Below, in pieces: positions 2,487-64,000 of a stretch of DNA of 64,000 nucleotides (position 1 is the stretch's first letter; each line of letters starts with the position of its first letter). Source of the stretch: Marsupella aquatica. Its lineage: Eukaryota; Plantae; Marchantiophyta. The stretch lies in assembly GCA_973895155.1 (NCBI GenBank), contig OZ316895.1, positions 23,892,281 to 23,956,280 of the forward strand. Reading direction: 5' to 3'. Position numbers and translations under genes: made by a program. Under the pieces are notes generated by a model. The model saw nothing but the letters and a program-made list of their open reading frames with translations, had not been told where the DNA came from and searched no databases.

Positions 2487-5400
2487 TCAAGCCAAATACT
2501 TCTCAAGCTTGTCCACCTCCTCTTCACTGCCAACAAAAAGTGGGACTCTTTGATGTACCTGTTCCCACACCGACGCCGTTTAGTTGAAAAGCTTTGGTCG
2601 GATCAGAGTATAATAATGCAGAAGAACGAAAAATAATATTTATGGTCACGATAGCTAATAGAATACAGGATTTACTTTGATACAAAAGAGTTCTACGAAG
2701 AGGATGCACTACAGGAGTGATGAAAGAGTTAAATAATTGAATAATTGAATAATGAATCGTTCATCACTCCTGTAGTGCATCAAATCGTTCATCACTCCTG
2801 TAGTGAACGGGGTGGAACGAAGGACGAAGGTTAATTCTACTCCGAATGTTATAGTCAACGTCTTACTCCACCCTCCTTAACTTGGGTCCACAATTGCTCT
2901 CCAATAACGGATGGTTCTACTACAAGCATTTACTTTTGCTCCCCGGTTACAGAGAGTGTCAAGGAGTATATCACTCCCGGTACAACAGCCCTGCGGAGTG
3001 TAACTATGAATTCACTCCAGAAAAAATGCACTCCCAAGCAACGTGGAAGACACAAGAAAAGTAAATGATCAGCCTACATAGGAAAGCAAATTTATCTACT
3101 GAGAATTAGTCAGGAAAAGATGTACCATGAGAGAGATTTACCTGGTCGGGCTGGATATCCAAAACTCTGTTTCTGCCATCCGACCCCTTTCCACCAGCCT
3201 GCTCTGCCAAGAAGCTCATGGGAGCACACTCATAGAGCAACCTCAGCTTTCCAGTAACACTCTTCTTGTCGGCAGGGTAGCCGTAAATTCCACCGTAGAG
3301 CATAGTTCTATGGAAATCACCCACGAGACTGCCAATGTAGCGAGCTGAGTAAGGCTTTCCATTTGCATCAGGGATTTTCAGGGCATCCACATACTTTTTC
3401 AACTTGTCATCCCAAAGCGCATAGTTCCCTTCATTAAAGGAGTAAATCTTTCCCTTCTTAGGAATCTTAATGTCCCTGTGTGTAAGCACGAACTCCCCAT
3501 ACAGAGGGTCAAGGGTGAACCCGAACACTCCATTGCCAACCGACAGGACCATGATGACCGAGCTGGAGTACATGCAATACCCAGCAGCCAGAAGGTTACT
3601 TCCGGGCTGGCAGACATTGATGATACAGTTCTCTTGAGTCTTGGCAAGCTGCAACACAAGATATTTGTTAAGCTTTCGTTTCCAGCAGTATCACAACTTT
3701 CGTTTCCAGCAGTATCAACCAGGCATTCCAACATTTCGTTCAATGCCTGATCTAGTCATTCCGCATTGCAGCGTGAATCCAAATGTCAAACGAGTCCCCA
3801 AGATAACATATATAAAATTCTTTTATCCAGAGGTAACCATTTTAATTTATTTTTACAAGACGATCTCTATTCGTAGGAGATCAGACCACTTCCGTGAAGT
3901 AAGACGACGATGAGAAAAGGAATGAAGTGAACGACTAGAAGAAGCCAAGCGGCACCCGTGCACACGACGGAAATGGATTTACACTCGAGCGTGCGGAGAC
4001 AACACTGATGTAAGTTGCCTCTTTCGGCTGAGGCAACATAATTCAGGGGGCAAAACGCCGACTCTATTTACGGTAAGCAAGGGAAAGAGTTGGGTTGAAT
4101 GTTAAATTACATTGTCTTCGTCATCGAGGTCTGCGAGGCACTCCTCAGTGGGCCTGTAGATCCCGAAAATTGAACCAGTGGAGACTGCTGCGTCGATGTT
4201 CGAAGAGCCATCCAAAGGATCGAACACAACGACGTAATTTCCTGAGTAACTCTCTTCCACTGCCACTGGGGTATCCTCCTCCTCGGAAGCGATGATGCCT
4301 GTCCTTCCGCTCGACCTCAGGCAGCTGGAGAACACCTGCAAGTTGGAATAGACCACATTGACCCGTCCCTTTAGACATATGCATGACCCCGTCCAACCTC
4401 GGCTTCTAATCGGAAACCCAATTTTGGGCCCGTGTTACTAGCCCATTTCCCAAGCACACTTTTATCCTCCACTCATCCAAACGAGAGAGAAGATTGCTCG
4501 AAGATTTCCGTCTCAAAAGAAACCGGAAGTTATGCCAATCGGAATCCTGGACAGCGGCGTCCCAATTCCTAATTTTTCTTCTTTCGACTGACTAACGATA
4601 GATTTGCAGCAGTGGATACAGTAGATCCAAACTACATCATTGTAAATTCCGAAGTTTTGGTCTCTACCAAAATACTAAAACAAAATACAAACGAAAATTT
4701 ATTTTCCAGTACTCTGATTTTGGTTACAAGTTGTGATCAATCTGTACCATGATTGAAAGAGGAAGAATGAATCTACGTAGACTCAGACAACTCATTATTA
4801 GTGGCTGGATGATGACGATCATCCAGCATCAGTTATCGATAGCAGAATGGCAATACTAAAAGTACAAGGGATCCACACAGGCCCTGGGACAAGAATTGTA
4901 CAGTGCATTCGAGAGGCAGAAGTCACACATCGTGGGTATGTGAATTTGAGAATGAATGAGTGAAAAATCAGTAGACAAACTATCTAGTCCTCGACGACCC
5001 ATGTGGTCAATGGGACCGACGCTTCGCAAAGATTTCTACGAGCAAAATCTCACGTAAGTTCTGAACCAAGAGCGTACCGACGAATTCACCACAAAATCTC
5101 TAGCTTGAGTCCAGAGAGCGAATGAACGAATGAAAGTCCACGGGAATTCAAATCGGCAATGGGACCAATAATGTAAAGTGACCCATCCAAGTCAAATTCA
5201 ACGTCGCAGCAGGTGGGCAGCATTAACAGGAGATCTAGACAGTCCGGAAGCGCATTTCATTTCATTCCCCAACTCCTACGAAATGCGGAATGGACTGGCT
5301 GATGGAAAAGAGCGAGAGAGAGAGAGGCACCTCGTTGGAGATGACATCGAGCTTCTTCTGGTCCTCGCCCTGCACGTTGACGGCGCCCTGCACACCGGTG

Positions 5401-5810
5401 AGATTTGAAATGCCAGCGCGTTGCACCAATGAGGCAATCTGCTTGCAAGCCACCGCAATACTAGACAGCACAATGGTCAATTCCCCATCAATCACGCCCT
5501 CCTGCTCCTCCCTCAGCAACCAGCCGGTGAAAGTCTCCAACTCGTACAAGCTCTTCTTCCTGGGCTCCTTGGCTGGCGGAGTCACGGCAATAGCTGCTCT
5601 CGCGGCCCCTCCTCCTCTGCCCCCCGCAGCAACACAGCTCGTGGCTCTGTTCACTCGCAGCCGCAACGATGGCGATGCTGCGTGGAAGGAGGACGAGAGC
5701 TCATTGCACAGGGCCCGAGCGGACGATTCTTTGCCGTGAGAGGTCTTAGATAGCCGTGATTCAGCAGCAATCGAAGCAATGGAGCTGGCAACTGCTGTAG
5801 TGGCAGCCAT
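2487..5810 (-). CDS. FBP: Fructose-1,6-bisphosphatase, chloroplastic (redox-regulated cpFBPase), 4 exons, ~427 aa
   Basis: Exons 5810-5331, 4335-4111, 3648-3142 and 2558-2487, all GT-AG and in frame. Ala/Ser-rich transit peptide. Motifs [63 protein letters not shown] and [10 protein letters not shown]. Regulatory loop with three cysteines ([27 protein letters not shown]). Confidence 0.97.
2703..2805. repeat. Intronic 22-bp perfect inverted repeat with CACTA...TAGTG ends plus a duplicated right arm
   Basis: gatgcactacaggagtgatgaa (2703-2724) pairs with ttcatcactcctgtagtgcatc (2760-2781). aatcgttcatcactcctgtagtg is repeated up to 2805. Lies in FBPase intron 3. Confidence 0.75.
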
Positions 5811-6569
5811 AGCTTCAATCCGTTCTAATTCTCCACACTGTAGTCGCTCAGCTCAATTCAGCTCAGCTCAGCTACAATGCAATAGAAGCGACAGGAAGAG
5901 ATTGAAGGGAACTCTGAATTCTGGCCAGGAAGCGAATTGCAGTGCACGGTGGTCAAAATTGATCAATGAACCAATCAATTCCGCTCCGAATCAGCGTCAG
6001 CAGCAGCAGAGAGTCTCCACTTCCTCTCTGGATAGCATCGCGATGAACGAACAGCATATCCACAGAAGGGGAACGAAACCGGCGGGGCTGATTCCGGGGA
6101 CATGGAAGGGGAACGAGAGGTTGGGAAGGGGAACGAGAGCTGTTGGGAAAACGCGAACGAGAGGCCCACAGTTGGATAACCAGAGCACCAAGAAGATGGC
6201 GCCACGTCGGAACATTTCAACGCCCCTTGAAGGATCGGACGGTCTCCAGTGCGCCCCCGGCATGTTCATGCGCACTTGTGGGGGCGGTCCTCTGAAACAA
6301 GTAACAGTAATTCGTTACCGAGTGTGTACGGTTTTTAGGGGCCTTTATTATGTTTGAGGGAATATAGATTATTTCATTTTGAGAATGAAAGGATTCTATT
6401 CTGGAACCCTGCAATCTGGAGTTCTTGACCGTTGATTGAATAGATGAACGACAGATGATGAGTACTGGGATTCGCATCTTTGCTGCCGCATTACAAAGTT
6501 ACGTTTTGTAGTATTGTCTTTTAGGGGACATGGGCAAAATTACGTATTACTGTTTTAAATTATCTAGTA

Positions 6570-43923: not shown

Positions 43924-46900
43924 ATGACGGAACCCAAGAATACAGGAGAGAGCGAACAAGGGGCTTCACCAGTGGGTCGTGTTTATCGGCGTCACTCAGC
44001 AGGAGGTTCAGACGAGCTTAAATTACAACGAACTAGGAGCTCTAGGAGAAGTTCATTATCACAAGGCCTGAGAGAAGGTGGCCACATAGTAGCGTCAGCT
44101 GTTGGCGGGGCTGTTGGGGCTGTTGGAGCCTTCTTCAAAGATAGTAGGTGAGTTCATGTATAAATTTTCTGTACTATACGCCCCTTGGACATTCGTGATG
44201 TTTGTCCACTTTTCAATACCTGAATGTGCTGCAAATGAGAAACATTTGTTTTTCTTAAATTCACTAGTTCATTGAAAAATCTAGAACCAACTTGTTCATA
44301 CTGGGAGAGAGGACGATGGAAGGAGGGATTTCCCTCGTTCCTGCAGTTTTGCTAATACCAAGGAATCATTATGTATCGTAAAAGGATGATGAGACAAAAA
44401 ATCGGTCAGGATTTACCATGTTTCTCGAGAATCGAGCATTGGCAACTATGTAGGACGAAGAACTTGCGCTGATGCCTAAGCCACAGGCAGTGCGCTAGTT
44501 AGTATAAACCAATGAGCAACAATTAACAAGAGCATGCACATCGGTGTTTGATAGGGGTGAACTGCTTGACCCTGAGGATGATCCTGAGTTTGTCCGAACC
44601 CAGCCAACATGGGAAGATGATCTGAACAAATACCTGCCTGAAAGTCAATCTTATACGCAGCCATGGAATGCAAATCCATCATCAGCCGTTGGTCCATCAA
44701 CATCCAGACAGCCTGTTGCTTCCGGATTCGAGAATGTCGCCTCCACCTCAGCAAAACCTCCAATGATCCCCTCTCAAGGAACAGGCAATGCGGTATTGAA
44801 CTTGCTGTTAGGAGTCAGTTCCAAACAGCCACAAAGCCTAGCAGCATATCGATGGCACAAAGCATATCAATTCGTCAAAAGGCAAAATGTACGCATGCCC
44901 TTCTCCTATGATCTATATGCAACACAATTTCTGCATTAAAAAGTGAGAAGAACCTTTCTCTTTTAAAGCACTACTTCTACTAGTCACACAATCTCTTCTT
45001 GAAGCAAGCCGTTCATAATAGTATAAACAAAACATTCCTTTTGTTAAAGAGACAGAGTTCGTGAGTTTAGCATGTTGGAATTGGTTGCAGGCGATGAGAA
45101 GGAAAGCCATGAGCAGTCCACTAGGTACTGGAGCAAAATTAGATGGGCTTGCTTTTGGAATGATCCCCACGGATGATGAAAACAGACAAAGCCTATTTAA
45201 GTTTTGGTACCAATCGTATCCACCAGCAATATACTAAGCCTTCATATACTCCTTTGTGGACACGAATACTTTTGACTAAAGGAGTTTCTTCCCATCGATT
45301 AATGAACTGTGTGCTTGACAAATACATAGTCAATCAGTCCGAGAAGTTATAGATTGCTATGTATTTCTCAAGCATGTTAATTAAGTTTGGTATCAGTGTT
45401 TCAACAAACAGAGGGCTTTTCCTTAAACCTGCGAAACATGTAATTGGTGTATTGAGTGTATATCTCCTTATTAGGAATTCCTGTTTTTCCAGAACTTTAC
45501 TTGTTGACTTCAGCAATTTATGTGCTTCAAGAATCTTTCTTAACATTATATCAGGAATGCGGAGTATTGGCTGGCTTGTCTTATTGCAGGTCATATTCTT
45601 GTACTTATTTTGAAAGCAGAACACAAGTTTGTCACACCATACATACCCCCCAAGAAAGGTCTTAATGGTGCCGACATTGCTCTCACTACATTCTATACGT
45701 AGGGCCCTCAACACCTTCCGAGTTGAATTTCTTTTCTTTGTATGTTTTGACTCAGTGCCCCTTCTGCATGGACTTCCATTTTTAAGTTCTGACAGAACAA
45801 AATCAAACCCAAGGAGAAAAATGGAAGGAATGACGAAATTTAGCATCAGTACTTAGGAACAGAAATCACCGCCTAGCAAAATTAATGAATTTCCTTGTCT
45901 ATCTCACCACATATGTCCACACTCGGTAGCTTGCTTGAGTTGAGGGGTCATTATACGTACTGTATTCTTCGTCTGGCATGTTCATCTTGCCTGAGATTGG
46001 ATAACAACTTGGATACTACTTCCATATCCTCTCCTAAGTCACGTCTCGTTTTCAGAAAGTCAGAGGTTCTCCCCTTTGGCAAGTGCACCAACCTTCTGCC
46101 TGCGGGCGGAAATAAAATAATGTCGCAGAAAAGTCCTATTGACCTCATTTTATTAAGAACCAGGCAAGTTAATGGATGATAATGACTGTTCATCTTGATT
46201 TTATTGCAGATTGGAAATCGTAAGCCGAATCTTTTGCTTGGGATTTTGGCACGAAGGTCCCCACACATATCTGCGTAATCCCTACAACAAGCTAGATCTC
46301 GTCATTGTTGTTGATTCATGGTGAGATTTGTATGCAGCATGTAGCTAAATTTCTATGCATTATGGCAAACTATTATTCGATCTAGGTCATATTCTAAGTG
46401 TTTCAAATCTGAATAATGTCTCCTCTGTTCTGTGGAGAAGTTTTCGAGACTCATAAAATGGACAAACCGGTCCTGATGTATGCGAACTGCAGGGTTCATA
46501 TTGCACGAACGTGTATTCTAGGGAAAGATGCATTTTGCCGTATCGCTATACTTCGAATATTTCGAATATTGCTGTCTATGAGGCACTTCTCTTTCATCGG
46601 GAATGTTCTAGTATGATTCATTTTTCACTTCGCTCCAATTCAAAGTCTTTTCTTTCTCATGTATCAATCGTGCATATTCCTTACAGCTTTTTAGCACCTA
46701 GCCAGGAGCTTGTTGGAATAGCCCACATGCTTGTAAAGAGGCTGAGGAATTTATTATGTCACTGTTTTTGTTTGTCCTTTCTGTTATGACAAGCTCACCC
46801 AAGAAATAGGAGAGAGGAAGTTCTTGTATGTCCGGAAGCATTCATGTTTTCAAAGCAATGAATTCTACTCGAAACAGCAACTGTCTTAGTTTCTGGTCCA

Positions 46901-49900
46901 CATTCTGTATTGTTGTGTATCGTTGCATATAACTTCTTTGCTGATATTTTCCAAGTGTTCTGGGAATCTTGCAGGCTATCATGGACTCCATAGCCAAAAG
47001 TGCCTGGCAATTGAGGACAATATTTGTATTTACCATTATGATAATGTCCTTTTATTCCTTGATGGGTGTGGTCTACTTAGGTGGAGCCCTGCAAAATAGG
47101 TATAGTCTCATAGCATGCATTCATCGTTTGCACTCTTACTTGTACAGCCAAATCTAATGTCCTGCCTACAAATGAGCAAGTTTAACGTATTCTTGCAAGC
47201 ATAATGCATGAAATGAAAAGTCAAAACTAGACTGAAAAATCAGAATCGAGCTTTGATGTGTTTTGTTCATGGCATTGTCGGACGTTGCGTAAACCTAATT
47301 CCTTACCTACATGGAGACGAGAATGTGTCTGCCAGAATAGCACAACTACACCTCAAGAGTGATTCTTTAGAGAGTCTGAGTTGTATTCAGCACAATCTTT
47401 GATCTTGTCAAGGTTTTAACACGGTCAATTACCTGTACAAACTTATTATTGAAACCCTTGCTAAGATGGCATCAACTTACTATCCTGTCAGGTGCATACG
47501 GACCACAGATAATCTTACTTCCTATCCCGAAAGGAATTGCATAGTAAACTTGAATAATCCTTACGGATATTTATGTCCGGATGAACTTGACCAATACTGC
47601 CAGGTAACTTCTACTCAAAGTGATTGAATGTTCTTTGGTGGATGGCTGCAGTTTTCAGTGACCAATTTCTACAGGTTACACATAGATTAAAAATTCAATC
47701 TATGAGCTATCGAGATACAAGATTAGATTGCAATTTATGAAAGAGAGTGGGCACTTAAGTAAGGACAAGTAATATGCTTTAGCCGCGGCTTTATCGACGT
47801 GGTTAAAGGAAGATGTGCTTGAGACTCATACGTTCTTCCATGACGAATTAATTGTTTCCTGTTCATTTAATTCTGTGGATCTACTCCTTGTTTTTCTAAA
47901 CAAGGAACAATTGATTTGTCATGGAAGAATCTAATTCGTTCGATTTACTCCAGCCTGCATATTCTTCTCAAAAAGAAGCAGTGTGATTTGTAGTTGTGTG
48001 CTCTTGCACAGAGGTCACTGAAACCTTTTCATGAAATAGTAACTTGATATGACTCTGAAAATTTTGTGCAGCCTTATATAAATCCTAATTGGGGAATCAG
48101 CAGCTTCGACAACTATGCATCAGGGATGCTAGTACTTTTTCAGGTTAAAATATATTATGTGCATGATACCTCTCGCTATAAAATGAACATTGTGTGTCGC
48201 TCTTTGTACAGACACGTAGTGAGTATAGTAAATGGTGGGTGAATGTAAGATTCCCTATAGAGAGCCTTTGCAGCTGCATTTCTCCGGATGCTTGCAAATT
48301 CCTCAAGAGCAAGTTTCATCACAGAATCAAGATTTGAGGGTTTGCAATTGTTAAAAAATGCAAATGGTAACCTCCTTCCAGCTAAGGTGGCTTCCATCAA
48401 GTGTTGTCGGCACTCACCCTTCTGAAAAACTGACCTGGCTAGTATGGCCATGGCTGTGACCATAAGAACTGGCTACCTGACAGGCTATCAACAACATGAT
48501 CGTTAAGGCTAAGTTGTATTGGTTTATATTTTTGTTTTAGTGGACACAATGCTGTAGAAGCAAACAGTTTTATGCTTAGCAACTCCTTAGGTACATGCAA
48601 GTAAGTGAAACAATTGATTTCACGACAAGCCGGCTTGCGAAAAATTTTGATGAGTTTAATTCATTATTTTGCTTTTGCTTTCTTCCAGATGATGACTTTT
48701 GAAGGATGGTCACTTCAAATGTATAACATGGATGATACGAATGGGTATACAGGTGTGAAATGTCTTTCAAATGTGTACCTACTCTCTTTCAAACATTTGT
48801 AAGCATCAAATTCAAGAACAGATCGAAAGAAGCTATTAGTAAGATATGCTACAGTACATCAGAACAAAATGTAAACTCTCAACGAGTAGCTCTCGAAAAT
48901 TTTGGTAAGAAAACATTCTTGAGGAGATGAGTAATGATCTCCTGTGCGCACCAAAGAGAAGAGAACAGGACGAATTACAGGAAGCCATATATTGGAGGAC
49001 TACAATCATGCTATGTACAGGAAAGATAGACTCTGAGCTTGGAAACCTGTCTTACAGCCTGTGTACATGTCTGGTTTACTAGTCTTGGACCGCACTGCAT
49101 TGGAGTCAAGCTGTGGGTGTGATACAACAATATTTTCAATGGCAAAATTTCTCCCAATTCCACCTCACTAAAAAGTCTGTCAGGTTTGGCAAAACTTTGC
49201 CAGGCTTATTGTCTTCAATTCGCCAGATTCTCACCTTGCCACAGACCCCATTTGTCAGAATCCGACCGTCATCCTTAAATCTGGGGAAATCTAGCGGTCA
49301 GCAATCCATTGAGGGGAATTAGATGAGGTACATAGTGAATACTCTCCTTTGTACAAAGTGACATTCGCCACCTTGGCAAAAAAGAAAAATGTTGAAGACT
49401 ACCCTGGTGTGGTACAGAGTGAACTCTTAGCTTCCTTCATGGGGCATGATTCTGGTTCTATTGTCTTTTACTGGCCTTGTCTTGGAGTAGAGTCCACTTG
49501 TCATGCGAGGTAAAAAAATTGACATAGGAAAGGCATTTTAGTGAAAGGATAAGGTGGACGGGAATTAAGAAAACAAGAACAGCGGAAGTGTAAAGAATCC
49601 AAATAACTATGAGGAAAGTGCGGTTCTGTTCCCCCTTTTTCCAACAACTAAAAGCTATGACATATCAGTGCTCCATAGAGCTCTCTCCATGTGTATGCAA
49701 TTATTGCTAAAATCCTAACAGCTATCAAATGTATCTAATCAGCTAAAGTCCACTCAACATGATAGAATTGGAAAGAGATCAAGAGTAATGTTAAAAATTC
49801 ATGGTTCTCTTTATGTTTTGAAAGAAATGTGAAAATCATGATTGACAGCCCATCTACATTTTGAACTGATCGCATTACACAAGCTGTACGTTTTGGATTA

Positions 49901-52900
49901 ATTTGGTTGTATGAAAATCTTAGTAATTTCTTTCCATTGGTGGTTTTTGCAGATGCATTCTATATGATCTTCTTGGTTATCGGGAGCTATTTTATAGTTA
50001 ATGTGTACATTGCAGCCATAAGTAGTATATTTCTAAGGGTGAGGCATGAGCATCAGGTACATGACATACACTGATTCTGAAACCTAGGCAGTCCTTGTTC
50101 TTTAAGATTACTAGCCCCGATTACCCGTTCTTTGAACGTGAATAGTAGAGAGGACAATAAAGAATTATCAAAATATATGTTCAATTCATATTCTTTGAAG
50201 ATTAATGAAATGATAAAAAAAACCATCATTTTAATAGTCATATATAATATATTATTCTCCTTGATGTGCACAGGCTTTTTGTATGCACATCCATGTTCAA
50301 TGCACATATGTTATGGTGGGGCCATACTACCTATATTTTTTTAATGTAAATATTTAAAAATTATCAACATGTATATACATCATAGTCATGTCATAAGTTT
50401 TTCCCATGTATATGATGACCATGCACATGATGACCAGAGAGTTACGGTCTAGAGGCTTCACTCTAGACCCTAGCTTGTGAAAAGTAGGCTGAAGTTTGCG
50501 CTTTATTAGTAAGATGAATATATACATAGAATCAAGAATTTAAGTTTCCAAACAGGGAAAATAGAAAATCAATTAACCTTGTCTGGTCATGATAATTGTA
50601 CAAGAAGATAACTTTCACATATTTTGAACAATAATATTTAAAGACTTAAACTGATAGACTTCTTGATAAATGTAATTGTTTACTTGTTTCTTGCAATTTT
50701 CATTTCTTAAATTTTGAAAAACATAGACGTCCTCTCATTATAATTGAACTGCATAGTGAAAGCAAAGACAGTCACTAAAAATACCAGAATTTGCCTTAAA
50801 AACAACAAAAACTAGCTGTGAATGGGGTATTGATATTCTTACATCCACCAAGTTGTCTAAAAAGTGAGTTGTTGTGCTATCTTTAAGGATTGTCATATAT
50901 TGTCATGCAGGCTCTACTCAAGAAACACCGGCGAGATAAAGAATTCACTTTTGCAGCTGCAATTGAAATGGCCAACTTATTAAGGGATGTCATTGTTAAC
51001 GATGACAAAACTGTCAAACTCACATGGAGGCAAAGGTTGAGTGTTAATACCTCCATAGGCATAGAAAAATTAACGGCGACCGTCTCTCGACAGGGTACGA
51101 GACTACAAAGGACATTTACAAGGGCAGTAGATTGGAATGATCCAAACTCCTACTTGAAAAGATTAAGTACCTTTGGTGCGACTAGCCATGACACTGTAGA
51201 GTTGGAGGAGGTTGCACAACCACCTGGGTCAAGATCATTTGGACGTTCTCTATCTCGTAACCTCTCTATTGGTGGACAGCATGTTGCTCGATTGAGTCGT
51301 TCTCTCTCTCGCAATATTTCCCTGGGCATGATTTTTGCTGCCAAAACTACGTCTCAAAAGTGTTATCTTATTGTGCAAAGTAAACTCTTCATGTATGCTG
51401 TTCTACTTATGATTAGTCTCAATATGGCGGGTCTCTGCACCTTTCGGGCAAGTATATCTCACATACATAAAGTAAGACTTGGTATCCTTGCCTATGAAAG
51501 TTTGAATTACAATTTAACAGTGGTAAGGAATCAAAATATCAGAAAACCTATATGTCTGAGAAACTTATATGAACCTTGTAGATTACTACCTAGATTGAAT
51601 AAACCATACGCCTCCTAATAAATTGGAAACTAAGGGACAAAGAAAATGAATCAAAGCTCAGTCTAGTTGGTATGTGGTTGCTCCTGTGATTAGTGAGTAT
51701 TTTTTTTCTAAATGAACAGTAGTGCATTGTGAGCTCTACTATAAATTATGAGATAATGCGCTGTTTGAATTTGCATTCTTTTTAGCTGTATTCCTATGGA
51801 CGATGAAGCTAGAGATAGATTTAAAATGGACAATTTAAACATAAAAAGATCCTAGCAATGCAACTATATTTCTGCTGATTTTAAACTGTTCAATTACTAA
51901 TGAATATTTAGTTTTTCTCATCTGATTAAATTGAACAATAAATAGGCAGCTGAAGACTAGCTATTTGTTGATACTCCTTAATTTCTATGCATATTGTCTT
52001 TGTTCAAAGCTGTTGTGTTGGAGTATTATACTGAATTTAGACTGAAGGTACATTAATCAAAACAAATGCTCCTCACTAACAAACATTGTAAACGTGCTCC
52101 CATTTTGCAAAGCAACTGTCTTTCAAGTGGCACATACATTGAGCACTTAGCCCAATCGGATTTGGTGTGAGTGTGGAGTGTAGAGCTGGGTTGCAAGAGA
52201 TTGGACATCTGATTTTGGGCCAATGATGCAGAGAAAGATTCCTTTGTTGCCAGCTGAAAAGTAGCAATTAGTTCAGTCACAGAATTACAGGGTAACCATC
52301 TGAGTGGGGCCTAGAGGTCAGCTTAGTTTGCCAGGGATGACTAGTGTCCTGCAAGTCTTCAAGTTCAATCCCATCAGACAGTTTGGCTACGTACAGAGTC
52401 TGTTCTTGCATGCAATATGAGGTCTATACCACCCCACTTTGGGTGGGTCAAATGTGTTATGTGCCATTTCCCTTATGGTAGTTGTAGAATTAAGCTATAC
52501 CAAAGAAACTATAAACCAGGGGTTTCCCTGCCTGCAAAAGCTAGTTGGGCAGCTCGCTCAATGAAAGGGTGTTTCAAGCTCAAAGGCAATTTCCCTTTCA
52601 GTTAAACTAAGTGTTTTGGGCTCAAATGCGGTCTCCTTTTGAGAAAGGGTATGTTTGGCAGCAAGCATTCATTGTTAGTGACTTACTGGGGTGATCCACT
52701 ACTTTCCTCACTTTGGTATCTACCTCATTGACTCCGGTTGATTTGAGTCTTCTGAGGGGGGGTTTGTTGACTCTGTGGGGTTCTGTAGGCTTTGCCCATC
52801 CCCCCTTCCCCCAGATTTATTTTGCTGGCCCATGGCTCTATGTCTGGGTTTCAGGTGCCAAAAATGAATGTAAAATGTTGACCGTTGGGAAGCCAAATAG

Positions 52901-55900
52901 TTACAAACAATTGAGACAAGTAACCTATCAAGACAATAGCCAGAAAGTGTTATCTAGTTTGTTTCACTTGCCTTTGTCTCGATCTTTTATGTTAGTATAT
53001 TAGAAAACTTAGAGTAAGTAGATCAGTACCCCTACTTTTCATATAGTTATTGGACATAATAGAGATGAGTACAAAAATTGTTTGTGTGAGCTGTGGGGAA
53101 AGTGGCAGATTGTGCATGGAATGGGCGCACAGTGACACCTTTAGGTTGATATCATGGTCAGAAAAAAATGTCACCATTATTCAATGTCCAAGGAGGCTTC
53201 TTGCTAATATGACATTGATAAACAGACAATGAGAAAGAAAGACAAGGGATCTAGCATATATGATAGTGTCTAGATGTATGTATGTTATTTTATTCCTAAA
53301 CCAAAAAACAATTGAAGCAAATACTGAATGAGAACACATTATAATTTCCATGACAAACCTTGACAAAATATTAGAGATATTGGAGATTGGCATGTTGATT
53401 ATATTTTCAGGCGAGATGGCCTTGCGATTCATGGCTGCAGGTTCACTTGCAGGCTTTGTTGATGAAAGTACGTATGTGAGAAAATTTCCTTGATGACAAG
53501 AAAAGTGTTTGCAGTATTGTTGTGGTTGTGTTTTTAGACAAAGTTATCTAGATGAAAAAAATATATTGGGGTTCACTTAACTTCTAGAAATAGGTCACTT
53601 GCATATAACACTCTCTTAGGTAACCCAATCATGCAGATCTTTTAAAAACATCTAGAGTAATACTGACCAAATAATTACTAGAGACCAAAAAAGTGAATAC
53701 AATCAATAATAAGTTATTGATTTTAAAAACCAGGCAAGAAAACATTTTTGAATGTAAACCTGAGCCACCAAGTTGAAGCTTTGATCAGTTGGGTCACAAA
53801 CCTTTGTGAGAAAAAACGGAAGTGCCCATACTATATCCCCCCCAACCGTGTATTATTTAAAGAACTCAAGGAGAACTAGTTTATTTACCAGGGGAGGGAC
53901 AAGAATCCCATCCAGAATAAGGAAAATCTGTCCGCATGTGATCATGAGAAAATGAAACTGCACGGTGCACCACAATGCTATTTCTATGTAAAGTACAATG
54001 TCTGACTTAAATAAATCCCCAAATTGGTGTCATATGAAGTTTTTCCTATCTAGAAATTTATACATGATATTCTACATTTGTGTGTTATGGTTGTTAATCC
54101 CATTGTTAATTCAGTCTGTGCATTGTGTTTATAGGGATGAATATTGTTGATACTGTTGTTATAGTTATCTCCTTTGGTGCCACTGGTTTTGGACCCAGCA
54201 AAAATTATCCAAATATAACTCCAATTCGAATGTTGCGTTGGTTTTATAAGAAGAACAGCCACAATGAAGACCAAGGGGAAGACATATCCATATCGGTATG
54301 CACTGAACTCCGTTTGTCCCATATGTTCTATTTCCAAACAACATAATTGCGCAATTGAAGTAAAAATGCACAAGATTCATGGGTGATTTTTTTAACCAAA
54401 AACTATCTTTGCATAAAGTCTCCAAAATGACAATATGTAGAAGTAGATGGAAGCTTTAGTCCATTGTCAGTGCATGATACTAAAGAGATGTTTATGGAGA
54501 AAAAGTGACTAGCTAGGATCTAGATCCATAATCTGCAGGACACATGTCTCACTCATTAGTGGGGGCATCATTCATTTAATAATGTCAATGGTGCATAAAA
54601 ATAAGACCATTGATACGAGGTGTCACTCGTTGAAATATAGTATGTATTCAAAGACAGAACAATAGTGATCTCGACCATTTTCTACTCTCCATCAATTTGA
54701 ATTAACAACCTTCCAAATGGATTATAATAATGGAGGATTATGCTGCCTACAGTCCAACCATTTCACTCTAATCCATGGTTTAACTATTTTTAGATATATT
54801 TGAGCTACCCAGAGGAAGACTGAAGTACTCATTATTTAGTTAGCTGTAAGTTACCAAGGTGATTTGCATGTGAACATCTTGTTAGACACTACAGTAGCTA
54901 GAATGGCTGTCATAAACAAAGAAAGAGAACAATTTCCTCAAGCCAGGCTACAAAGACAAATGTCACACCTCTATAACTATCACATAAGTGCAAATGAATA
55001 AAGACAATAGTCTCTATAATTGTGTTGTACTGTATGTTTAAAGAGAAAAACGAAATGATAAATACTTAATTAAATCAGCAAGCCAACTTAAACAACTAAT
55101 CTGACTTGCTATCAAAATAGCATTGATGTTCATTTTGTTTGATGTAGGTGGCAATCATACGAAGTTTTGGATCGTTGGCAAGCGTGTTTTTTTTCTTCAC
55201 ACTGGTCATTCTTGTATATTCCATAGTTGGCATGGAACTATGGGGCGGCCAATTCAGCAAATTTGATGATGGCTATCCACGTGCCAACCATGATACTATT
55301 TTCCAAGCTATGCTATTATGGTTTTCAGTGACCACAGCTGAAAGTTGGCCTAATCATATGTGGAACACAATGCGTCCTGGGATGCCATACCAGTTACACT
55401 TCCTAAATTGTCTTCAACTCTTGTGGACCAAGTCTCAGTGGATTCTTCACATAATTTTATGGACTTTAGCATCTGACATAATGTTGGTGTCAATAGTGTT
55501 GTTTCACTTTAAGATGGATATGGTGACCCCAATTGTGACCTTTCTTTAATCATGTTGCACCTCTCATGAATGGCATATATTGCAGTAAATAACTCAAAAA
55601 ATGCATGATGGTTATTGAGGGACAATTGTGTCCATATTATAAGACAAGAGTGCAGGTTGCAAGCATTAATTAGCAGTGACATGGATCATATGATGTGGCA
55701 GGTGGATGGGACCTATCATGTTTATTAGTTACTATATGACATCTACAATAGTTATTCTGAACCTCATCATGGCTGTGATTTTGGAGCAAACTGAGCTGAC
55801 TGACAACCAAAAAAAGTACATACAAAAGGTTTGATACCTCAGAGACAAGAATTATGGACAAAGATAAATTAATATATTTTGTTAAAGTTTGGTGTAACCT

Positions 55901-58900
55901 TTAGACTGGAGATGTCTTTAGTTATGCATCCATCAATTAAACACAGTTTAAATTCACCATACTTAGCATGACCTACTCTGAGTGCGGCCTCATTCCATCA
56001 TTTTGAAAAATTAACATGTTGTAGTGAATGGCTGGCTTCGTTTTGTGATTAAAAATTGCATTGTTCTCAATCTACCAGGATGCCTTGTGTTGTTGGAATA
56101 TGAATCCTAGCTAGGGAAAGAACTTTTGTTATTATTGGCCATATGTTCAATTTTGTAGCATTGTTCAATTTCTTCTGATTGTAATGCATTGTTGTGATCT
56201 GTCTGGGGATGCTAGAGGGATCATATAAAGTGGTTACAATCCAGGCATAGTCATCATGTTTCTACAACAAGGGGTTCAGATTGGCTTCTCGACGCTGTGC
56301 ATGGTGCTCACAAAGGATATAAGGGGGTGAAGAAGAGAATGAGTACCATAAAAGTCTCAAGAATGTCACTTTTCCCAGTGTTTCAGCCAGAAACTGGATA
56401 TGTAAGGATGATCCCTGCTTCACAAGGTGGACCTCCCACTAGTGAGGGTCTTCTTCCCATAACCAACTCTCAAACACCATTAGGAGCAATACCCGAGGCA
56501 AAGCCCCCTACCAGAAGGTATTCTTTTGGATCCCCAACAGCTACTATACCAGGGGCAGTGGCAGACCCCCCAAGCGAGGATAGAACAAAAGCAAGGATTT
56601 TTCGAAGAAGCAGCTTGAGTGCTTTAACTAGTATGGGTTTAATGTCTCCAGGTAGTTCTCATTCACCAATGCATCGAAGACCTAGCCATGATGCTGACAA
56701 GGTGGTTCTAAGAAGTGGTTTTGGCAAAATAAAGCCTGTAGTTGAAGGTGAAAACAGAACTGCATTGCAAACAGCGCTCTTACATGTTGTGGAAGAACAG
56801 AAAGAACTTTCCAAAATAGTGGACCAACAGAAAAGTGAATATGCCCAAGAACTTGCTGCTGTGATAACTCCAGTGCCTGGCGTACCAATTGATCCAAAAT
56901 TGGCAACCCCTAAACTTGGGAAAATGCCATCTAGGAAAGAAAAGGAGACACGTATCTCATTTTCACTGTCTGACTATGAAGCAATTAAACCAATGGGTGA
57001 GAAGAAGGTTCCATGGTGGTTGTCCGAACCCTCTCTCTTTATCTTCAAACCTGATAATAGGTTCCGGATATTTTGCAACAAAGTAGCTGAGAATTCCTAT
57101 TATCTTTATTGGCAATATATACTTATTTGGTTGAGTTTGCTTATTGTTGTGGAGCAAACTGAATTAGGATTTTACGAACTTTGGACAAGTCGGCCACAAA
57201 TTTTGAATAACCTTGACTATGCGCTTTGTGGTGTAAGTTTTCCTTTTTCATTCTCCTTCAAACTGGGTTTCACTCAATTTTCTTTGGGCATCAGTAGGGT
57301 CTTATTCATTCAAAAGTTGATGATGTCTTAGTGATAGTTTAATTCAATGCACTCATCTGTTTAAGAAATTGCTAGATACTTCACCTTGTTTGCTTAAGTC
57401 CGTAGTCAAGTGTTTTACAGATGTAACAATTCATGTGCCTGAAAATGTAAACATCATTGTCAGTTTTTTATGGACCTCAACTCAGCCATAGATCGATGTT
57501 TGTAAGCTGGGTTTGAGGCAGGCTTTGCAGTTACATAATGAAAATAGCATGAGACCATAGGACATGCAACATTTGAAGTTGTTGTGTTTTGAATGGTTAA
57601 ATTTTAACCTTGGGAGCTATGGATATACTGTAGTCTATGTTACTAAGAGACAGGACTGGTGACCCTATCACACATTCATGTGACCTTTTCAAGGATATTG
57701 AAAGAATCCCTATTGATGAAATATGTTGCTGTTTGCACTGCATAATTAAGTCTCTCCAAAACTTCATTGCCTAGATCTTTTGAATTATCAATGAATGCTT
57801 GCTCAAGACCAATAATATCACTTCAAGATTCATATGCAAATAGAACTCATGTCTTAAGTTTAACATTTGAAACTTTCAGTTCCACTTAACTAGCTCAATA
57901 TTTATTTATGAATGAGCTATTTATTTATGTTTCTTGTTATTTTTACTGATCACCTATGTTAGAATGTAATCTTAGAAACGTACTTTTATTGGTGCACAGT
58001 ATTTAGAGTAGTAATATTTATATATATACAAAACTCAACTCAGCTATCACTCAAAAATAATTCCTTCCTTGATAAGAATTATTCACAAATAGGAGAGGTA
58101 CTTAGACTGAGGAGAACTTGTTCATGACTCATAAAGTTATTATTATGGAAGCTAAGTGTTTACATTGTACACATACATTCTGTGAAATTGGGTGTGAAGG
58201 AAAGGAGGGATAAATGAATATTTATGTTATTGCCTGTGCTAGTCTTTACCTTTAATTTAAACTCTGGGATTATCTAAAGAGGAATTAGTAACTTGATTTC
58301 TTGCCCTGGGAATAATGAAGCTTTGATTATAAAACAATGTTCAATACAATTTCTTCCCCAGATGACACAACTTGGCTTGAGCAACACTGAACCAGAGCCA
58401 TGTTCTAAATCCCCAAACAGGTCTTAGCAAGCTTGAACCAAGAGCTTTCTCTTGTTTATTTGTTTGTATCCTATATTGCAGTTTTGCACATTATGAATTT
58501 CTTGATTAAGAGGTCTCTTAACTCATTTGTGCAATTATTGTTGGTTGCAGGCATTTTCCCTAGACTTCTTAATAAAAATTGTTGCTTACGGTTTTCTCTT
58601 TGCACCAGAGGCTTATTTGGGTGATCCATTCAATCTTATAGACCTCTTTTGCCTTATTGTACATCTTTGTAGAGTGCAAACCATAGTAGCGGGACCCTGG
58701 TTCAATATGTTCTTGCTATTATCAATGACACGCCCTGCAAGATTTGTTGTTCGGGCACCTGGTTTGAGGACTTTAACAGTATCAATTTTCCGCACAATGC
58801 CAGCAATCGGCCAGATGCTTGTCTTCACTATTGTTATCTATGCTATCTTTGCTGTTATTGGAATACAGTTGTATGCAAACCGTTTCAGGTATTGCACTGA

Positions 58901-59550
58901 TAGCTCGGTGACAGGTCATTTTGATTGTGTGGGCTACTTCTATAATAATGTCGGGATAATTGCCCCAAGGACATGGAGAAACCCTCCTTTTCATTTTGAC
59001 AATTTTGGTGAAGCAATGTTGTCTTTGTTTGTTCTATCTACATTTGACAACTGGCTCGATCTATTTGCATACACTTCTATGGACATAGCTCATCAGCATG
59101 AATTACAGCCAACGCGAAATGGTAGCCCTGAAAATATCATTTACTTTGTGAGCTTTGTTTGTGTGGGAGGCTTCTTCATTTTACGCATGTTTATTGGTAT
59201 CTTTATAGACCAGTTTGGTATTATCTCGGGATCTAAGTTGCTCACAGAGAGGCAAAAGCTATGGCGAGATACAAACCGTATTGTACAATCTATGAGACCA
59301 ATTCGTCTTCCAAATCAACCCACGGGAATCATCCGAGGATTTTGCTATAGACTGGTTCACTCTAGGAGGTTTGAGCTACTTGTCATATTTGTGGTTCTTG
59401 TCAACTATGGTTACATAGCTTATCAACACTATGGCAGTGAAAGTATACTAGTACATTTTAAGCACGTTATGGACTTCCAGAATGTTGAGACTATGTTTGT
59501 TAGCCTGTACTTGGCGGAAGCCCTTGTCAAGTTTCTAGGTACTGAGGTGC

Positions 59551-59627
<77 letters not shown>

Positions 59628-62600
59628 TGAGGGAAACATAATCTTTTGCCATGTACCATGAATCATCACATTCTAGAACTCAAACCTGTTATTTTATCTG
59701 AGATATACTATCTTTCCACGGAAACAAGCGGTAATTACTAAGCTGACACTACACCATATATTAATAATATGCCACAATATGCACGAGTTGACACCCAGGC
59801 CAGATGTACAGGTATCATACTGACCGCTTTGAACCACAGAGCCCCTGTCAATGGCAAGGAACCTCTGTCACTCCTGTTGACTTCAACAACTCCCACCCTC
59901 CTCCATGAATACAGTCATCCATGTCAAGCCTGGCCTTAGTATGTTCCCTTAAACCACAACTGCCCTTCAAAAGCTACGGGTTACCCGTAGTTACCATTAA
60001 AAGTAAAATTTTCCTGCAATTGTGGAGCAAACTGGCATGCTAGAGGAGAAAAGTGATTAAAATGTGGAAAAGGAGGAGATCTTGGACACTTCCACTTATA
60101 TAGGGGAAGTTGTGGTTTAAGCAAACTAAGGTACATTGGGCTATACAGCCATTTGACCAAACTAAGCATACTGAAGGGCACATAGTCCTTACTAAGCTGC
60201 AGAGTTTGCTAAGATACAACAGTGAGACCATGGGTGACTACTGTAGACTATATATGCTACTGGTGGGGAAATAGGAAATTTTCCCAACTAAGTTTCAGTG
60301 TCAAATTAGTAATTTCCATGGTTCCCATGCATGGCAATTCAGGAAGTCTCAGTTAAGTTGCAACAAGAAGCTGTTGGAACCAGTTTCAAAGTTTTGGTTT
60401 TGCTTTGAAAGACAATTCTTCATATAAAGAGTGCAAGGTTTTGAGGTTTTATTATGGAATTCTAGCAGCCCGAATTCTAGAAGACTGTTTTAATTTCAAG
60501 TAAGAGGTCATAAATGGATGAATCAATTGCAATATGTCTGTTTACAACTCTTATAGAGAGTGTGATGAAACCATGAGTCATTGTTTGCACATGACTATCT
60601 TATCAATACTGAGGTGTCAAACTTTTACTTAGCTGTTTTAGATCAAACAAAAGCTTTGGGGTACTGACTCAAGTAAATGTCTAATCAAGCTTGTGTTCAA
60701 ATCTTTGTTTGTAGTTTAATGATTGGTGGCACCAAAAATGGAACTTGGCAGAATTTGTTATGGTCATCGTATCTGCATCATGTATATATCCTGAATTTGA
60801 TTTGAATCAATATAGGACAGATGTTGGTGCATTCTTCTACATATTAAGAATATTTCGGGTTATCCGGTATATCCCACAGCTTAGCAGTATGGTCTCGACA
60901 GTGCTTATAAGTTTGCCAAATATGGTGGACATTGTGTGTTTGATGGGGATTGTATTGTTCCTTTTTGCTGGAATTGGAAACAGCTTATTTCCAACTCTCA
61001 AGAATGGGACATGCTATGGGGGTAATCTGAGCTTTGCTAGGTTCACAACAAGCTTTGTGCTGCTTTTTCAGGTAAATCTGATACTCACTATAGAACTTTT
61101 CAAACTTAAGCAATTGCCTTCTCACCCATTTCAAATCACGAAAAGCTTTTTTGTGCTAGCTAGTCATAGAAATTGCAGTTTTGCTTCCTAAAAGTGGATG
61201 TCATTGGAACTTTTCCAACTAAGTAGCAGCTTTTCCTCCTTATGAATAAGAAAAGAGTCATTGGATCAGTTAGGAGGTCATCTGTTAGGATTGAGGAAGG
61301 CTGAATGGAAGCTGGCCACAAATAATTACAAACTGTAATTGACAAATTCTAAGACATCATGATTTGCATGCAAGAGATCCGCTAGTACCAATAATATTGC
61401 ATTCATGAAACAATATACAATATATTACGAGTTCATGTATGATTGTAAATTCGACTTTTGAGGCATTGGTATGGCGCCCCGGTATGGCGCCCCGGTATGG
61501 CGCATGAACATTATTCCAGCTTCATTGGCCTAATTTATTTGAATGCGTCTTGAATGTTATTTTGGGCAGGTAACAACCTTGGACAACTGGTCATGTCTTC
61601 TACCAGACATGACTGTGCAACAACCAAGCTGCACTTATGGTAAAAGTAAATACTCGTCAGACTGTGGACTTCCATCAGGAGGCATAGTGTACCTAGTTGT
61701 GCTCGTTTGTGTGACCAGTCACATATTTGCGAACCTTTTTGTCGCTCAAATTATTGATAGTATCACCTTTGGATTGCTGGAGGAGAATGCTATGCTGACA
61801 CCTGCTCATTTATATGCATACCAAAACCTATGGGCTCAAAAAGATTTTGATTACTTGTAAGTCATGACACATACATTGATCTAACAAGGATAAAATTGTC
61901 TTTGAAAGTGGCTATTTTGTTTTTTTGCCAAAACTGAGTCCAAAACCATTTTGTAAAAACATTTGTATTTTTGACATTGCGCCTATGTGCAGTGAAGAAA
62001 GGTTTGAAAGCTCACATTTATTATGAATTTATCCAAAGTGTTCATAGTGCCATGTCCTAAGATGTAGAAAGTCACAAGTTTTTCATCACAATCCTCAGTT
62101 GCCACAATGTCTATTATCGGTTAAAGTTGTGCATCAAGACATATACCCCCCCTCTTGTAGATCTCCCTTGCACCCGGTGCATGGGGAAGGCATACTATTA
62201 AGGGGGGAGGTAGAGGGGTACATATGAAAAGTGGGGAGTAGGTACGGGGAGAGGTGGAGTACGAATTACATACACAAAAAGATGGGAGTATGTACAGGGA
62301 GAGGGAGTACATAGGGGCTTAAACCGCCACTGGCCACATAGAAGCTAGGAGTGTCCAAAACTTCCTCCAGTTCCCATATTTCACTCACTTCTCTCCTCTC
62401 CATGGCATTGTGCTCCACAATTCCAGGAAAAAGTTGCTTAATTGGTGAAACCTGGTGGATCCAGGTTCTGTCATGGCTAGTGGCAATTTAAGAACCATGT
62501 GGGTCATCAGTAGGGCTTGCAGAGAGACAATCTAGCTAGGCCATTGATTTGGAGAAAACTATGGTGGCCTTGAAAAACTATGGTGGTATTCTGATATATT

Positions 62601-64000
62601 AAAATTAAGACAAAGCAGTAGTTTTGAATAAAGATTATTGGCAAGGTAGATGCCTCAGTCGATTAAAAAGACAAAAGTAGTGGAACCTTCTCAAATCTCT
62701 TAGAAACCTGAAATGCAATCATTTTTCATGTCCCAACTCTGCCCTGATTTGGGTGTTGTCTTATTTTAAGGGCCTTACTTATTTTGAGGATCCCCCTAAT
62801 TTGGTGGGGTTCCAGCAATGAATAAATAAAAAATAAGGAACCTCACTGAATCTTAGTTTTACATGTGCACTTTGTACAAGAGTGTAGTCTCTAAATGAAA
62901 GTACTTTCTTGATTCCAAAGCTAAAAAGAGTACCAAGTTATAATGAATATAGTAGTGAAACTCTTTATGCACATGTTTCATTGCTTCTTGCAGGGCCACA
63001 GGCTACATTGGACACCACAAGCTGAGGGAATTTGTGAACAGGCTTGGTCCACCTTTGGGACGACGTCTCACATTCCAAGACAAGTGGTAAGTAGTATTTG
63101 ACTTTAAAGTCGTAAGTAATTATTTAGTTCATATTTGGTTGAATATATTATGCATTATTTTGTTATCATGAACTCTATCCACTTTATGGAGTTTGAGTGC
63201 ATTTTAAGTATAAGCACACAATACGAAGCATTGCTGATTCTGGGGAGCAATTTAATTACAAACTACAGTAAACAAACAAGGTAACTTTCCAACAACAAAA
63301 AAACCAAAAGATATCATTTCTCATTCAGTGCACACATCATAGCTTCCTTAAGCTTTTGATTGTTCATTAATATATTGTGAATCAAATGCAACAGGTTTAC
63401 TCGGATAGAATATGAAGCTCTCAACTTTCGGAGTTCAAGAGGAATTCCTTTCCGATCATTGCTTGAAACGTTGGTTTTGTACAAAATTGGGCCAAAGGTG
63501 TGTTTGAAAAGTTCAACAACAAATAGCATACATAGGACTTTAGAATACCTATTTAAATAACAAAAATTTAGCTAAATTTCACTAACTGTTATTTTTTCAT
63601 TGTCATTATGCCCAGGTTAAGTCTTCAAAAGATTAATTAAGTTCTTTTTGTTGGAGAATAATCAAAACAATGTTTTTATCCTATCTCAGATCTCATCTTA
63701 GGCTCGGGGGTTTCACTTCCACAAGCATGGCACATCATGTGCAATGAAAGATATGGTCATTTTATTGGTTCTAAGGAATACTTAGGAAGTTTATGGGAAG
63801 AACATTATGGTCTTTTTAATCAACATTTGAAATATTCCAAAAACATTCTAACTTTATAGGGGAACTTAAATAGTAATGTTTTCTTACATTTTAGGGGGTT
63901 GAGGCCTAAAAACGTCACAGCTGATGGGGAGGCCTCCATACAGTGAGACCCTGGCCCCAAGATCTTAGGCTCTCTTGCCTTGGTGGTCTATAGGATCTTG
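43924..64000 (+). CDS. Four-domain (4x6TM) voltage-gated-type Ca2+/cation channel alpha subunit, EEDD filter, NALCN/Cch1-like; 3' end outside window
   Basis: 22 predicted exons: 43924-44147, 44555-44888, 45091-45215, 45555-45698, 46210-46320, 46493-46610, 46975-47099, 47492-47603, 48072-48143, 48689-48752, 49953-50056, 50911-51481, 53375-53467, 54135-54295, 55148-55392, 55702-55828, 56216-57232, 58551-59546, 60715-61071, 61570-61856, 62994-63086, 63395-63497. Together 1861 codons, phases consistent, no stop. Four pore loops: FDNYASGMLVLFQMMTFEGW, HDTIFQAMLLWFSVTTAESW, FDNFGEAMLSLFVLSTFDNW and FARFTTSFVLLFQVTTLDNW. S2-S3 motifs YLRNPYNKLD and YLGDPFNLID. S6 motifs ILNLIMAVILE and FANLFVAQIID. 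EF-hand-like C-tail ATGYIGHHKLREFVNRLGPPLG. Confidence 0.95.
50111..50514 (-). mobile_element. Non-autonomous Helitron (~0.4 kb) in a channel intron
   Basis: Minus strand reads a|TCTTACTAATAAA ... cgttc-aaa-gaacg hairpin ... ggtaatcggggCTAG|t. Same family as 27103-27509. Confidence 0.85.
59553..59624. repeat. (TC)n microsatellite just after a channel splice donor
   Basis: Perfect TC run of ~70 nt starting 6 nt after the exon end at 59546. Confidence 0.95.
61468..61503. repeat. 13-bp tandem repeat (ggtatggcgcccc) x ~2.8
   Basis: Seen directly in a channel intron. Confidence 0.85.

Follow-up and report, generated by a model that had tools for sequence, protein, structure and literature searches.

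An E-E-D-D selectivity ring separate from that of animal Cav3 in a predicted four-domain cation channel of Marsupella aquatica and its land-plant relatives

A stretch of 64,000 nucleotides from the liverwort Marsupella aquatica (contig OZ316895.1, positions 23,892,281 to 23,956,280; hereafter the window, in whose coordinates all positions are given) carries a gene model for a four-domain cation channel at 43924..63497 on the plus strand. The selectivity ring of the predicted protein reads E-E-D-D, as in the animal T-type calcium channels (Cav3). Our reading of the whole, favoured with modest confidence, is that the gene encodes a channel of the green lineage whose ring arose independently of Cav3, which is likely permeable to Ca2+ and weakly selective, and which is predicted to admit Ca2+ into flagellated sperm. 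The ring residues and the residues directly following them (the +1 sites) are as follows.

48701..48706, plus strand: domain I ring residue Glu460 (GAA, 48701-48703, in frame, motif TFEGW) and +1 residue Gly461
55340..55345, plus strand: domain II ring residue Glu851 (GAA, 55340-55342, in frame, motif TAESW) and +1 residue Ser852, where Cav1, Cav2 and Cav3 have Asp
59046..59051, plus strand: domain III ring residue Asp1415 (GAC, 59046-59048, in frame, motif TFDNW) and +1 residue Asn1416
61582..61587, plus strand: domain IV ring residue Asp1705 (GAC, 61582-61584, in frame, motif TLDNW) and +1 residue Asn1706

The first-pass annotation of the window had named these four residues as filter residues forming an E-E-D-D ring. 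All four codons were found in the quoted motifs and in frame within a single gene model, bearing out the ring, and alignment of the pore loops with known channels upheld the register. The domain III Asp aligned to the ring Asp of the solved human channels Cav3.1, Cav3.2 and Cav3.3, the domain II Glu to the ring Glu of Cav1.1, Cav1.3, Cav2.1, Cav2.2 and Cav2.3, and the domain IV Asp to the ring Glu of NALCN; the register of the domain I Glu comes from the multiple alignment alone, which covers all four domains. All four motifs fit the arrangement of P1 helix, filter loop and P2 helix, and in each of them a conserved Trp stands two positions downstream of the ring residue. In the AlphaFold2 model of exon 18 alone (mean predicted local distance difference test score of 86), Asp1415, position 166 of the model, sits in a short loop that connects the P1 helix (152-163) to the P2 helix (168-177). 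The best Foldseek matches of this model were Cav and Nav structures (expect value, E, 3.5e-12), a single-exon result that speaks for the fold and cannot rank families (root mean square deviation of 16-20 Å, no Cav3 among the 50 matches listed). A search of the ESM Atlas returned generic Cav/Nav clusters only. The ring differs from those of Cav1 and Cav2, in which E-E-E-E is combined with an Asp at the domain II +1 site, and from those of Nav1 and Nav2 (D-E-K-A or D-E-E-A), which have a one-residue gap after the domain II Glu; in comparison with the protein P0042, the window protein has neither the Lys nor the Ala and no gap. None of its +1 residues (Gly, Ser, Asn, Asn) is acidic, and positions +1 to +5 of all domains together hold one acid, compared with three in Cav3.1 and four in Cav1.2.

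Protein searches place the gene in a conserved land-plant family with members in Marchantia, mosses, lycophytes, ferns and Ginkgo. The search with exon 18 returned 308 proteins, 120 of them listed, and the top 17 (40-58% identity) came from Marchantia, Riccia, Sphagnum, Ceratodon, Diphasiastrum, Selaginella, Ceratopteris, Adiantum and Ginkgo, plus one other record; animal channels followed below the land-plant matches at 23-30% identity. A full-length lycophyte member used as the query recovered the same set together with Chloropicon. No angiosperm or conifer name occurs in the named rows among the 120 matches listed in either search. Cluster look-up identified algal proteins from Pycnococcus and Bathycoccus and two Marchantia paralogues, Mp2g23520 (MARPO_0069s0001) and Mp6g11570 (MARPO_0016s0197), both annotated as hypothetical proteins. 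The two paralogues belong to the same family and have the same ring, with 49% and 52% identity to the window protein over the membrane columns. The +1 set of Mp2g23520 equals that of the window protein, whereas Mp6g11570 (P0326 and P0327) has Ser and Asp at the +1 sites of domains III and IV, the latter being the NALCN-type position. Within this single family, the Selaginella members P0006, P0011, P0013, P0014 and P0015 are labelled by RefSeq as T-type, L-type and sodium channels; these names are best-hit labels.

A survey of the ring across homologues was run in land plants, over 17 rows assigned by source name from which duplicate isoforms (P0001, P0003, P0012 and P0121) and four fragments were excluded. 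Domain I has Glu in all 10 filled rows, domain II has Glu in 13 of 15 and Asp in the other two, both from ferns, and the Asp residues of domains III and IV are invariant (17/17 and 14/14). Eight of the nine complete rings read E-E-D-D, and the remaining one, from Ceratopteris, reads E-D-D-D. The ring is thus not a chance occurrence, because these eight relatives keep it at 45-52% identity. The domain II +1 site is Ser in 11 rows, Gly in two and Asn in two, with an acid in none of the 15, and an acid at the domain IV +1 site occurs in two of 14 rows, both of them Mp6g11570. The two fern proteins with the domain II Asp, P0007 of Ceratopteris and P0009 of Adiantum, also have another residue in place of the Trp that follows the ring residue of domain III.

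The wider survey took the best 150 cluster representatives from 1.84 billion, of which 140 were new and 126 had complete rings. All-acidic rings make up 107 of the 126, and 14 of the 16 possible Glu/Asp patterns are present. E-E-E-E is the commonest of these all-acidic rings (58), and E-E-D-D occurs in 10, nine of which have Cav3-type flanks; the six of these nine that were placed in the tree join Cav3. The algal relatives mostly have E-E-D-E, with one E-D-D-E. In three of the algal sister channels (P0247, P0124 and P0453), Arg or Lys stands at the domain II +1 site, where animal Cav channels carry Asp. The tenth E-E-D-D protein of this survey, P0474 (3228 residues), lies outside both the Cav3 and the plant clade and has Asp at the domain II +1 site.

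The relation to Cav3 was examined with an unrooted tree of 57 proteins over 916 membrane-domain columns, from which five columns around each ring residue had been removed (LG+G4, quick search). Groups were named before the tree was seen, and support is given by the Shimodaira-Hasegawa-like approximate likelihood ratio test (SH-aLRT). The land-plant proteins form one group (SH-aLRT 100) and join eight E-E-D-E rows of an algal clade (SH-aLRT 100), three of which are tied to Pycnococcus, Chloropicon and Bathycoccus; Cav3 forms a separate group (SH-aLRT 100). The window protein groups with the Marchantia pair (SH-aLRT 100) and lies outside that pair (support 94), in a set without hornworts. Forcing the land plants and Cav3 into one clade was rejected (a loss of 351 log-likelihood units, p-AU 1.3e-163 in the approximately unbiased, AU, test). 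Over the tree columns the window protein is 49-52% identical to the Marchantia proteins and 34% to that of Pycnococcus, and its identity to Cav3.1 (24.0%) is not above that to Cav1.2 (24.3%) or Nav1.5 (24.9%). Animal Cav3 shares with it the E-E-D-D ring, the Gly at the domain I +1 site, the Asn at the domain IV +1 site and the four-domain fold. However, Cav3 is a separate clade at 24% identity with features of its own: Asp occupies the domain II +1 site, the domain III Asp is preceded by a basic residue, the S4 helices are fully charged, and the III-IV linker lacks the motif. The sister clade of Pycnococcus, Chloropicon and Bathycoccus channels (support 100, 31-34% identity) differs in its E-E-D-E ring and in having Arg, Lys, Gln or Gly at the domain II +1 site; the Pycnococcus row shares with the window protein a domain II S4 with two Arg residues and the III-IV motif, and has an IQ-like tail. 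Diphylleia P0452, with a D-E-D-D ring, and three proteins with E-D-D-D were considered as possible relatives, but the tree places them apart from this group.

The first-pass annotation had held that E-E-D-D on a non-Cav3 scaffold would be convergence with the animal T-type channels. The position of the window protein outside the Cav3 clade and the AU test agree with both parts of that proposal, and, judged by these sequence comparisons, the ring arose apart from that of animal Cav3 and is a convergence. The convergence is less surprising than first held, because the algal sister ring is one Glu-to-Asp step away, 14 of the 16 all-acidic rings occur, and P0474 also has E-E-D-D. Since E-E-E-E is the commonest ring outside, the simplest path would have the domain III Asp arising in a green ancestor and the domain IV Asp later, along the lineage leading to land plants, an order read from an unrooted tree without streptophyte algae.

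The annotation had also taken the all-acidic ring to predict Ca2+ permeability. Permeability is indeed likely for an all-acidic, lysine-free ring, whereas the likeness to a T-type Ca2+ filter did not carry over: Ser852 stands in place of a fifth Asp. The working Cav3 filter is described as EE(D)DD, with the fifth aspartate at the domain II +1 site; with Asn in its place, the Na+-dependent current gain of human Cav3.2 rose from 1.32-fold to 6.53-fold, and that of snail Cav3 from 2.32 to 8.56 (PMC9694082, available in part). E-E-D-D without this Asp has been classed as sodium-permeable, and turret loops also tune selectivity (PMC10120453, in part). The closest pore analogues are an anthozoan Cav3 lacking the +1 Asp and the Cav3.2 mutant D975N, which combine E-E-D-D with a neutral domain II +1 residue; they differ from the window protein in being true Cav3 channels with Asn rather than Ser at that site. 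Within the available parts of the sources, only the mutants were recorded, the Na+ permeability of the anthozoan gene being its authors' inference, and the gene is named Cav3a in one section and Cav3b in another (PMC10120453). The ancestral channel has been taken as Ca2+-permeable and not selective, and the +1 acid does not track the ring (PMC5824947, in part). Weak selectivity is predicted here because the domain II +1 aspartate is absent. Four carboxylates without a lysine would admit Ca2+; without the fifth aspartate, Ca2+ would be held less tightly and monovalent cations would pass too. T-type-like Ca2+ selectivity is probably not to be expected, and the likeliest pore is of an old permissive kind rather than a rebuilt T-type filter.

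A strongly Ca2+-selective, T-type-like channel, in which E-E-D-D and other pore or turret residues together equal the Cav3 filter, is in our judgement unlikely. Such a channel would account for a ring identical to that of Cav3 in eight of nine complete land-plant rows and for the best sequence scores of exon 18, which are to Cav3.2 and Cav3.3, and the tuning of selectivity by turret loops would give it room (PMC10120453, in part). However, none of the 15 land-plant rows has the domain II +1 Asp needed in Cav3.2 and snail Cav3 (PMC9694082, in part), outer-pore acids are few, and S4 charges are reduced. The scores of exons 15 and 20 also point away from Cav3, with exon 15 matching Cav1 and Cav2 best and exon 20 matching NALCN best, and with no Cav3 among 48 matches.

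The voltage sensors and the III-IV linker bear on gating. S4 charges were read by eye in the window protein and 10 aligned proteins, and the features are listed below.

46539..46583, plus strand: domain I S4, four Arg (329, 334, 337, 343) at irregular spacing
54227..54238, plus strand: domain II S4, only two Arg (764, 767), compared with five basic residues in mouse Cav3.1
58704..58754, plus strand: domain III S4, only three inner Arg (1310, 1313, 1317), compared with six in mouse Cav3.1
60847..60867, plus strand: domain IV S4, three Arg (1626, 1629, 1632) at every third position, compared with six basic residues in mouse Cav3.1
59238..59246, plus strand: III-IV linker motif Leu1479, Leu1480 and Thr1481, where Nav channels have their inactivation motif

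The S4 helices of domains I to IV thus hold 4, 2, 3 and 3 Arg, against 5, 5, 6 and 6 basic residues in mouse Cav3.1. Both the two-Arg domain II S4 and the III-IV linker motif are common to all nine green-lineage rows of alignment A1, and the motif is absent from Cav3.1. The motif consists of two Leu and a Thr, preceded by Lys, whereas the Nav inactivation motif is defined as three hydrophobic residues and a Thr (PMC5824947, in part). In the relatives, an EF-like segment and an IQ-like motif follow domain IV; the relative P0004 matches Pfam IQ narrowly below the cut-off (E 4.7e-4). The channel could plausibly be voltage-gated through domains I and IV, which would do most of the voltage sensing, and the III-IV linker motif together with the EF-like and IQ tail of the relatives would provide inactivation and calmodulin feedback.

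The sensors could also be those of a voltage-insensitive background (leak) channel like NALCN and Cch1, gated by partners, pH or Ca2+, a reading to which we give a low probability. NALCN and Cch1 have similarly charge-poor S4 helices and a similar domain IV pore loop, the S4 helices of domains II and III are charge-poor throughout the family, and NALCN is the best match of the exon that encodes the domain IV pore (E 1.2e-6). Such channels are assumed to be voltage-insensitive (PMC5824947, in part), and some channels of Chloroplastida, not named in the available part of PMC12412391, belong to its wide NALCN/Cch1 clade A. However, domains I and IV of the window protein retain three to four Arg, and NALCN scores are much lower for domains II and III: exon 18 gives 87 bits to NALCN compared with 212 to Cav3.2, 202 to Cav1.2 and 159 to Nav1.4, and exon 15 gives an E of 7-8. 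The rings of NALCN and Cch1 (E-E-K-E, E-K-E-E or E-E-E-E) differ as well, with Asp at the domain IV +1 site; the ring of the window protein has no lysine, and Asn1706 takes the place of that Asp.

A role of the channel in flagellated sperm is likely and is predicted from the species distribution: the named land-plant sources all have swimming sperm, as stated for these plant groups (10.1101/2021.06.01.446568, in part), and this distribution fits flagellar Ca2+ entry. A hidden Markov model screen of proteomes, filtered to at least 18 predicted helices, holds three four-domain entries from Marchantia, one from Physcomitrium and 14 from Selaginella, whereas Arabidopsis, Populus and Amborella have no entry; the proteome list includes each of these six plants (PMC12412391 Data S8, in part). 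Klebsormidium has two entries in the same data set. The channel would let Ca2+ into the flagellated sperm and thereby steer swimming, and in fresh water of low Na+ a weakly selective channel would still carry Ca2+ inward. Action in body cells instead of sperm, such as in wound or cold action potentials or in spores, is a less probable assignment that we would not favour. It would suit a gene whose close algal relatives include species regarded as non-flagellated. However, the named relatives are confined to land plants that have swimming sperm, Ginkgo among them, and the family is absent from the three angiosperm proteomes in the available part of PMC12412391. A Marchantia BK channel of similar range is, moreover, highest in male tissue (10.1101/2021.06.01.446568, in part).

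Several points weigh against the reading of an independently derived, weakly selective channel of flagellated sperm. The tree is a quick single-model (LG+G4) tree without bootstrap and contains no NALCN, Cch1, hornwort or streptophyte alga. An acidic +1 residue is present in only 61 of the 107 all-acidic relatives and in none of the domains of the other 46, and the domain II +1 residue is Asn in 42; the missing +1 acid is thus a frequent condition outside animals, and probably the ancestral one. The +1 rule was derived from animal Cav3 and from bacterial channels, at ~24% identity, and may not hold for this family. The family is not uniform either, as Mp6g11570 has Asp at the domain IV +1 site. 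The distribution by proteome leaves out conifers and cycads, so the link to motile sperm is only partly covered. Bathycoccus and Pycnococcus are coccoid algae with flagella absent or doubtful, which weakens a strictly flagellar role.

The family matters beyond its ring, as the match alone is a modest result, one substitution from the algal ring, and the overlooked family weighs more. Land plants are said to have lost four-domain channels of the Cav/Nav type (PMC6259924, PMC5824947 and PMC6509283, each in part), and most of them to lack the Nav type (PMC12455266, in part). This gene and relatives spanning liverworts to Ginkgo show the loss to be much narrower than stated. The supplement of PMC5824947 has no entry for Marchantia, Selaginella, Physcomitrella or Klebsormidium; the available main text of PMC12412391 does not mention Marchantia, Selaginella or land plants, though its Data S8 contains their sequences, and the available part of its preprint adds nothing further on them. 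The available parts of PMC5406480, PMC12849711 and PMC12069490 hold nothing on the land-plant family. A literature search, with most subscription journals outside its coverage, found no paper naming or characterising the family, Mp2g23520 or Mp6g11570. Voltage-gated channel homologues of Marchantia sperm have reportedly been presented by others, which leaves priority uncertain, and the names VICSRF and VICSPER for a Marchantia sperm channel gave no literature matches and may belong to work in journals outside the coverage of the search.

According to a 2025 Marchantia preprint, little has been explored of how Ca2+ signals in the sperm chemotaxis of land plants (10.1101/2025.04.26.650577). The family is a direct candidate for this signalling, and two genetically tractable plants carry it, Marchantia with two genes and Physcomitrium with one entry. 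As a natural and independent case, it would also help to decide between E-E-D-D and the fifth aspartate as the source of Ca2+ selectivity. Mp2g23520 and Mp6g11570 are possibly a pair with different selectivities. A wider proposal is put forward tentatively and with more doubt than conviction: this overlooked family would be the sperm Ca2+-entry channel of land plants with swimming sperm, a counterpart of CatSper and of the flagellar Cav of Chlamydomonas. It would have gained its T-type ring independently and without the fifth Asp, its Marchantia paralogues would be split into a Ca2+-selective one (with the +1 Asp) and a mixed-cation one, and it would have been lost with the flagellum in flowering plants. 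The proposed split of the paralogues resembles a proposal made for two anthozoan Cav3 genes.

Descent from a true Cav3 orthologue, or transfer from an animal-like donor, is hardly credible: the ring is the same and RefSeq calls one Selaginella relative 'T-type alpha-1H', but the joint clade is rejected by the AU test, the window protein is no more identical to Cav3 than to Cav1 or Nav, and other members of the same family are called L-type or sodium channels. That the gene model represents a pseudogene, or unrelated exons that happen to join, is likewise of negligible probability, since, although the splice model is a prediction and the last exon was not found within the window, its 22 exons are GT-AG-bounded with compatible phases and no stops and are colinear with full-length relatives. 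The predicted protein has 1861 residues, and the exons are as follows.

43924-44147, 44555-44888, 45091-45215, 45555-45698, 46210-46320, 46493-46610, plus strand: exons 1-6 of the gene model
46975-47099, 47492-47603, 48072-48143, 48689-48752, 49953-50056, 50911-51481, plus strand: exons 7-12 of the gene model
53375-53467, 54135-54295, 55148-55392, 55702-55828, 56216-57232, 58551-59546, plus strand: exons 13-18 of the gene model
60715-61071, 61570-61856, 62994-63086, 63395-63497, plus strand: exons 19-22 of the gene model

The model was guided by translated matches to three of the six plant relatives searched and by splice-site listings; the start codon and exons 1-2 are its least certain parts. 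All introns are GT-AG, and the exons run in the same order as the corresponding parts of the Marchantia, Diphasiastrum and Ceratopteris proteins; identity to full-length relatives is 38-44%. The gene model and Pfam together give four six-helix repeats in one chain: Pfam Ion_trans is matched in exons 15, 18 and 19 of the window, and in four stretches each in the relatives P0004, P0316 and P0247. The 3' end of the gene, with the last exon or exons and the IQ-like motif of the relatives, was not found within the 64-kb window. The channel gene is apparently intact. Contigs of four sequencing runs behave as genomic, with no splice joints among those listed. The contigs of run X1 show no differences from the window over the first three ring codons, and X1 may be the window's own source.

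A long (CT)n microsatellite lies at 59553-59624, just past the donor site of exon 18; it lengthens the open frame and could lead gene-calling programs astray. Intron 11 contains a high-copy repeat at 50110-50473, with a contig depth of 3,500-38,000 in the bin 50164-50685 compared with 13-250 elsewhere and many loose contig ends at 50110 and at 50469-50473. On the minus strand the repeat ends in CTAG, with a small hairpin shortly before; the hairpin search of the repeat found a hairpin only at the other end. By comparison with Helitron ends, the repeat may be a non-autonomous Helitron-like element. Exons of a gene of the fructose-1,6-bisphosphatase family (Pfam FBPase and FBPase_C) lie on the minus strand at ~3100-5850 of the window.

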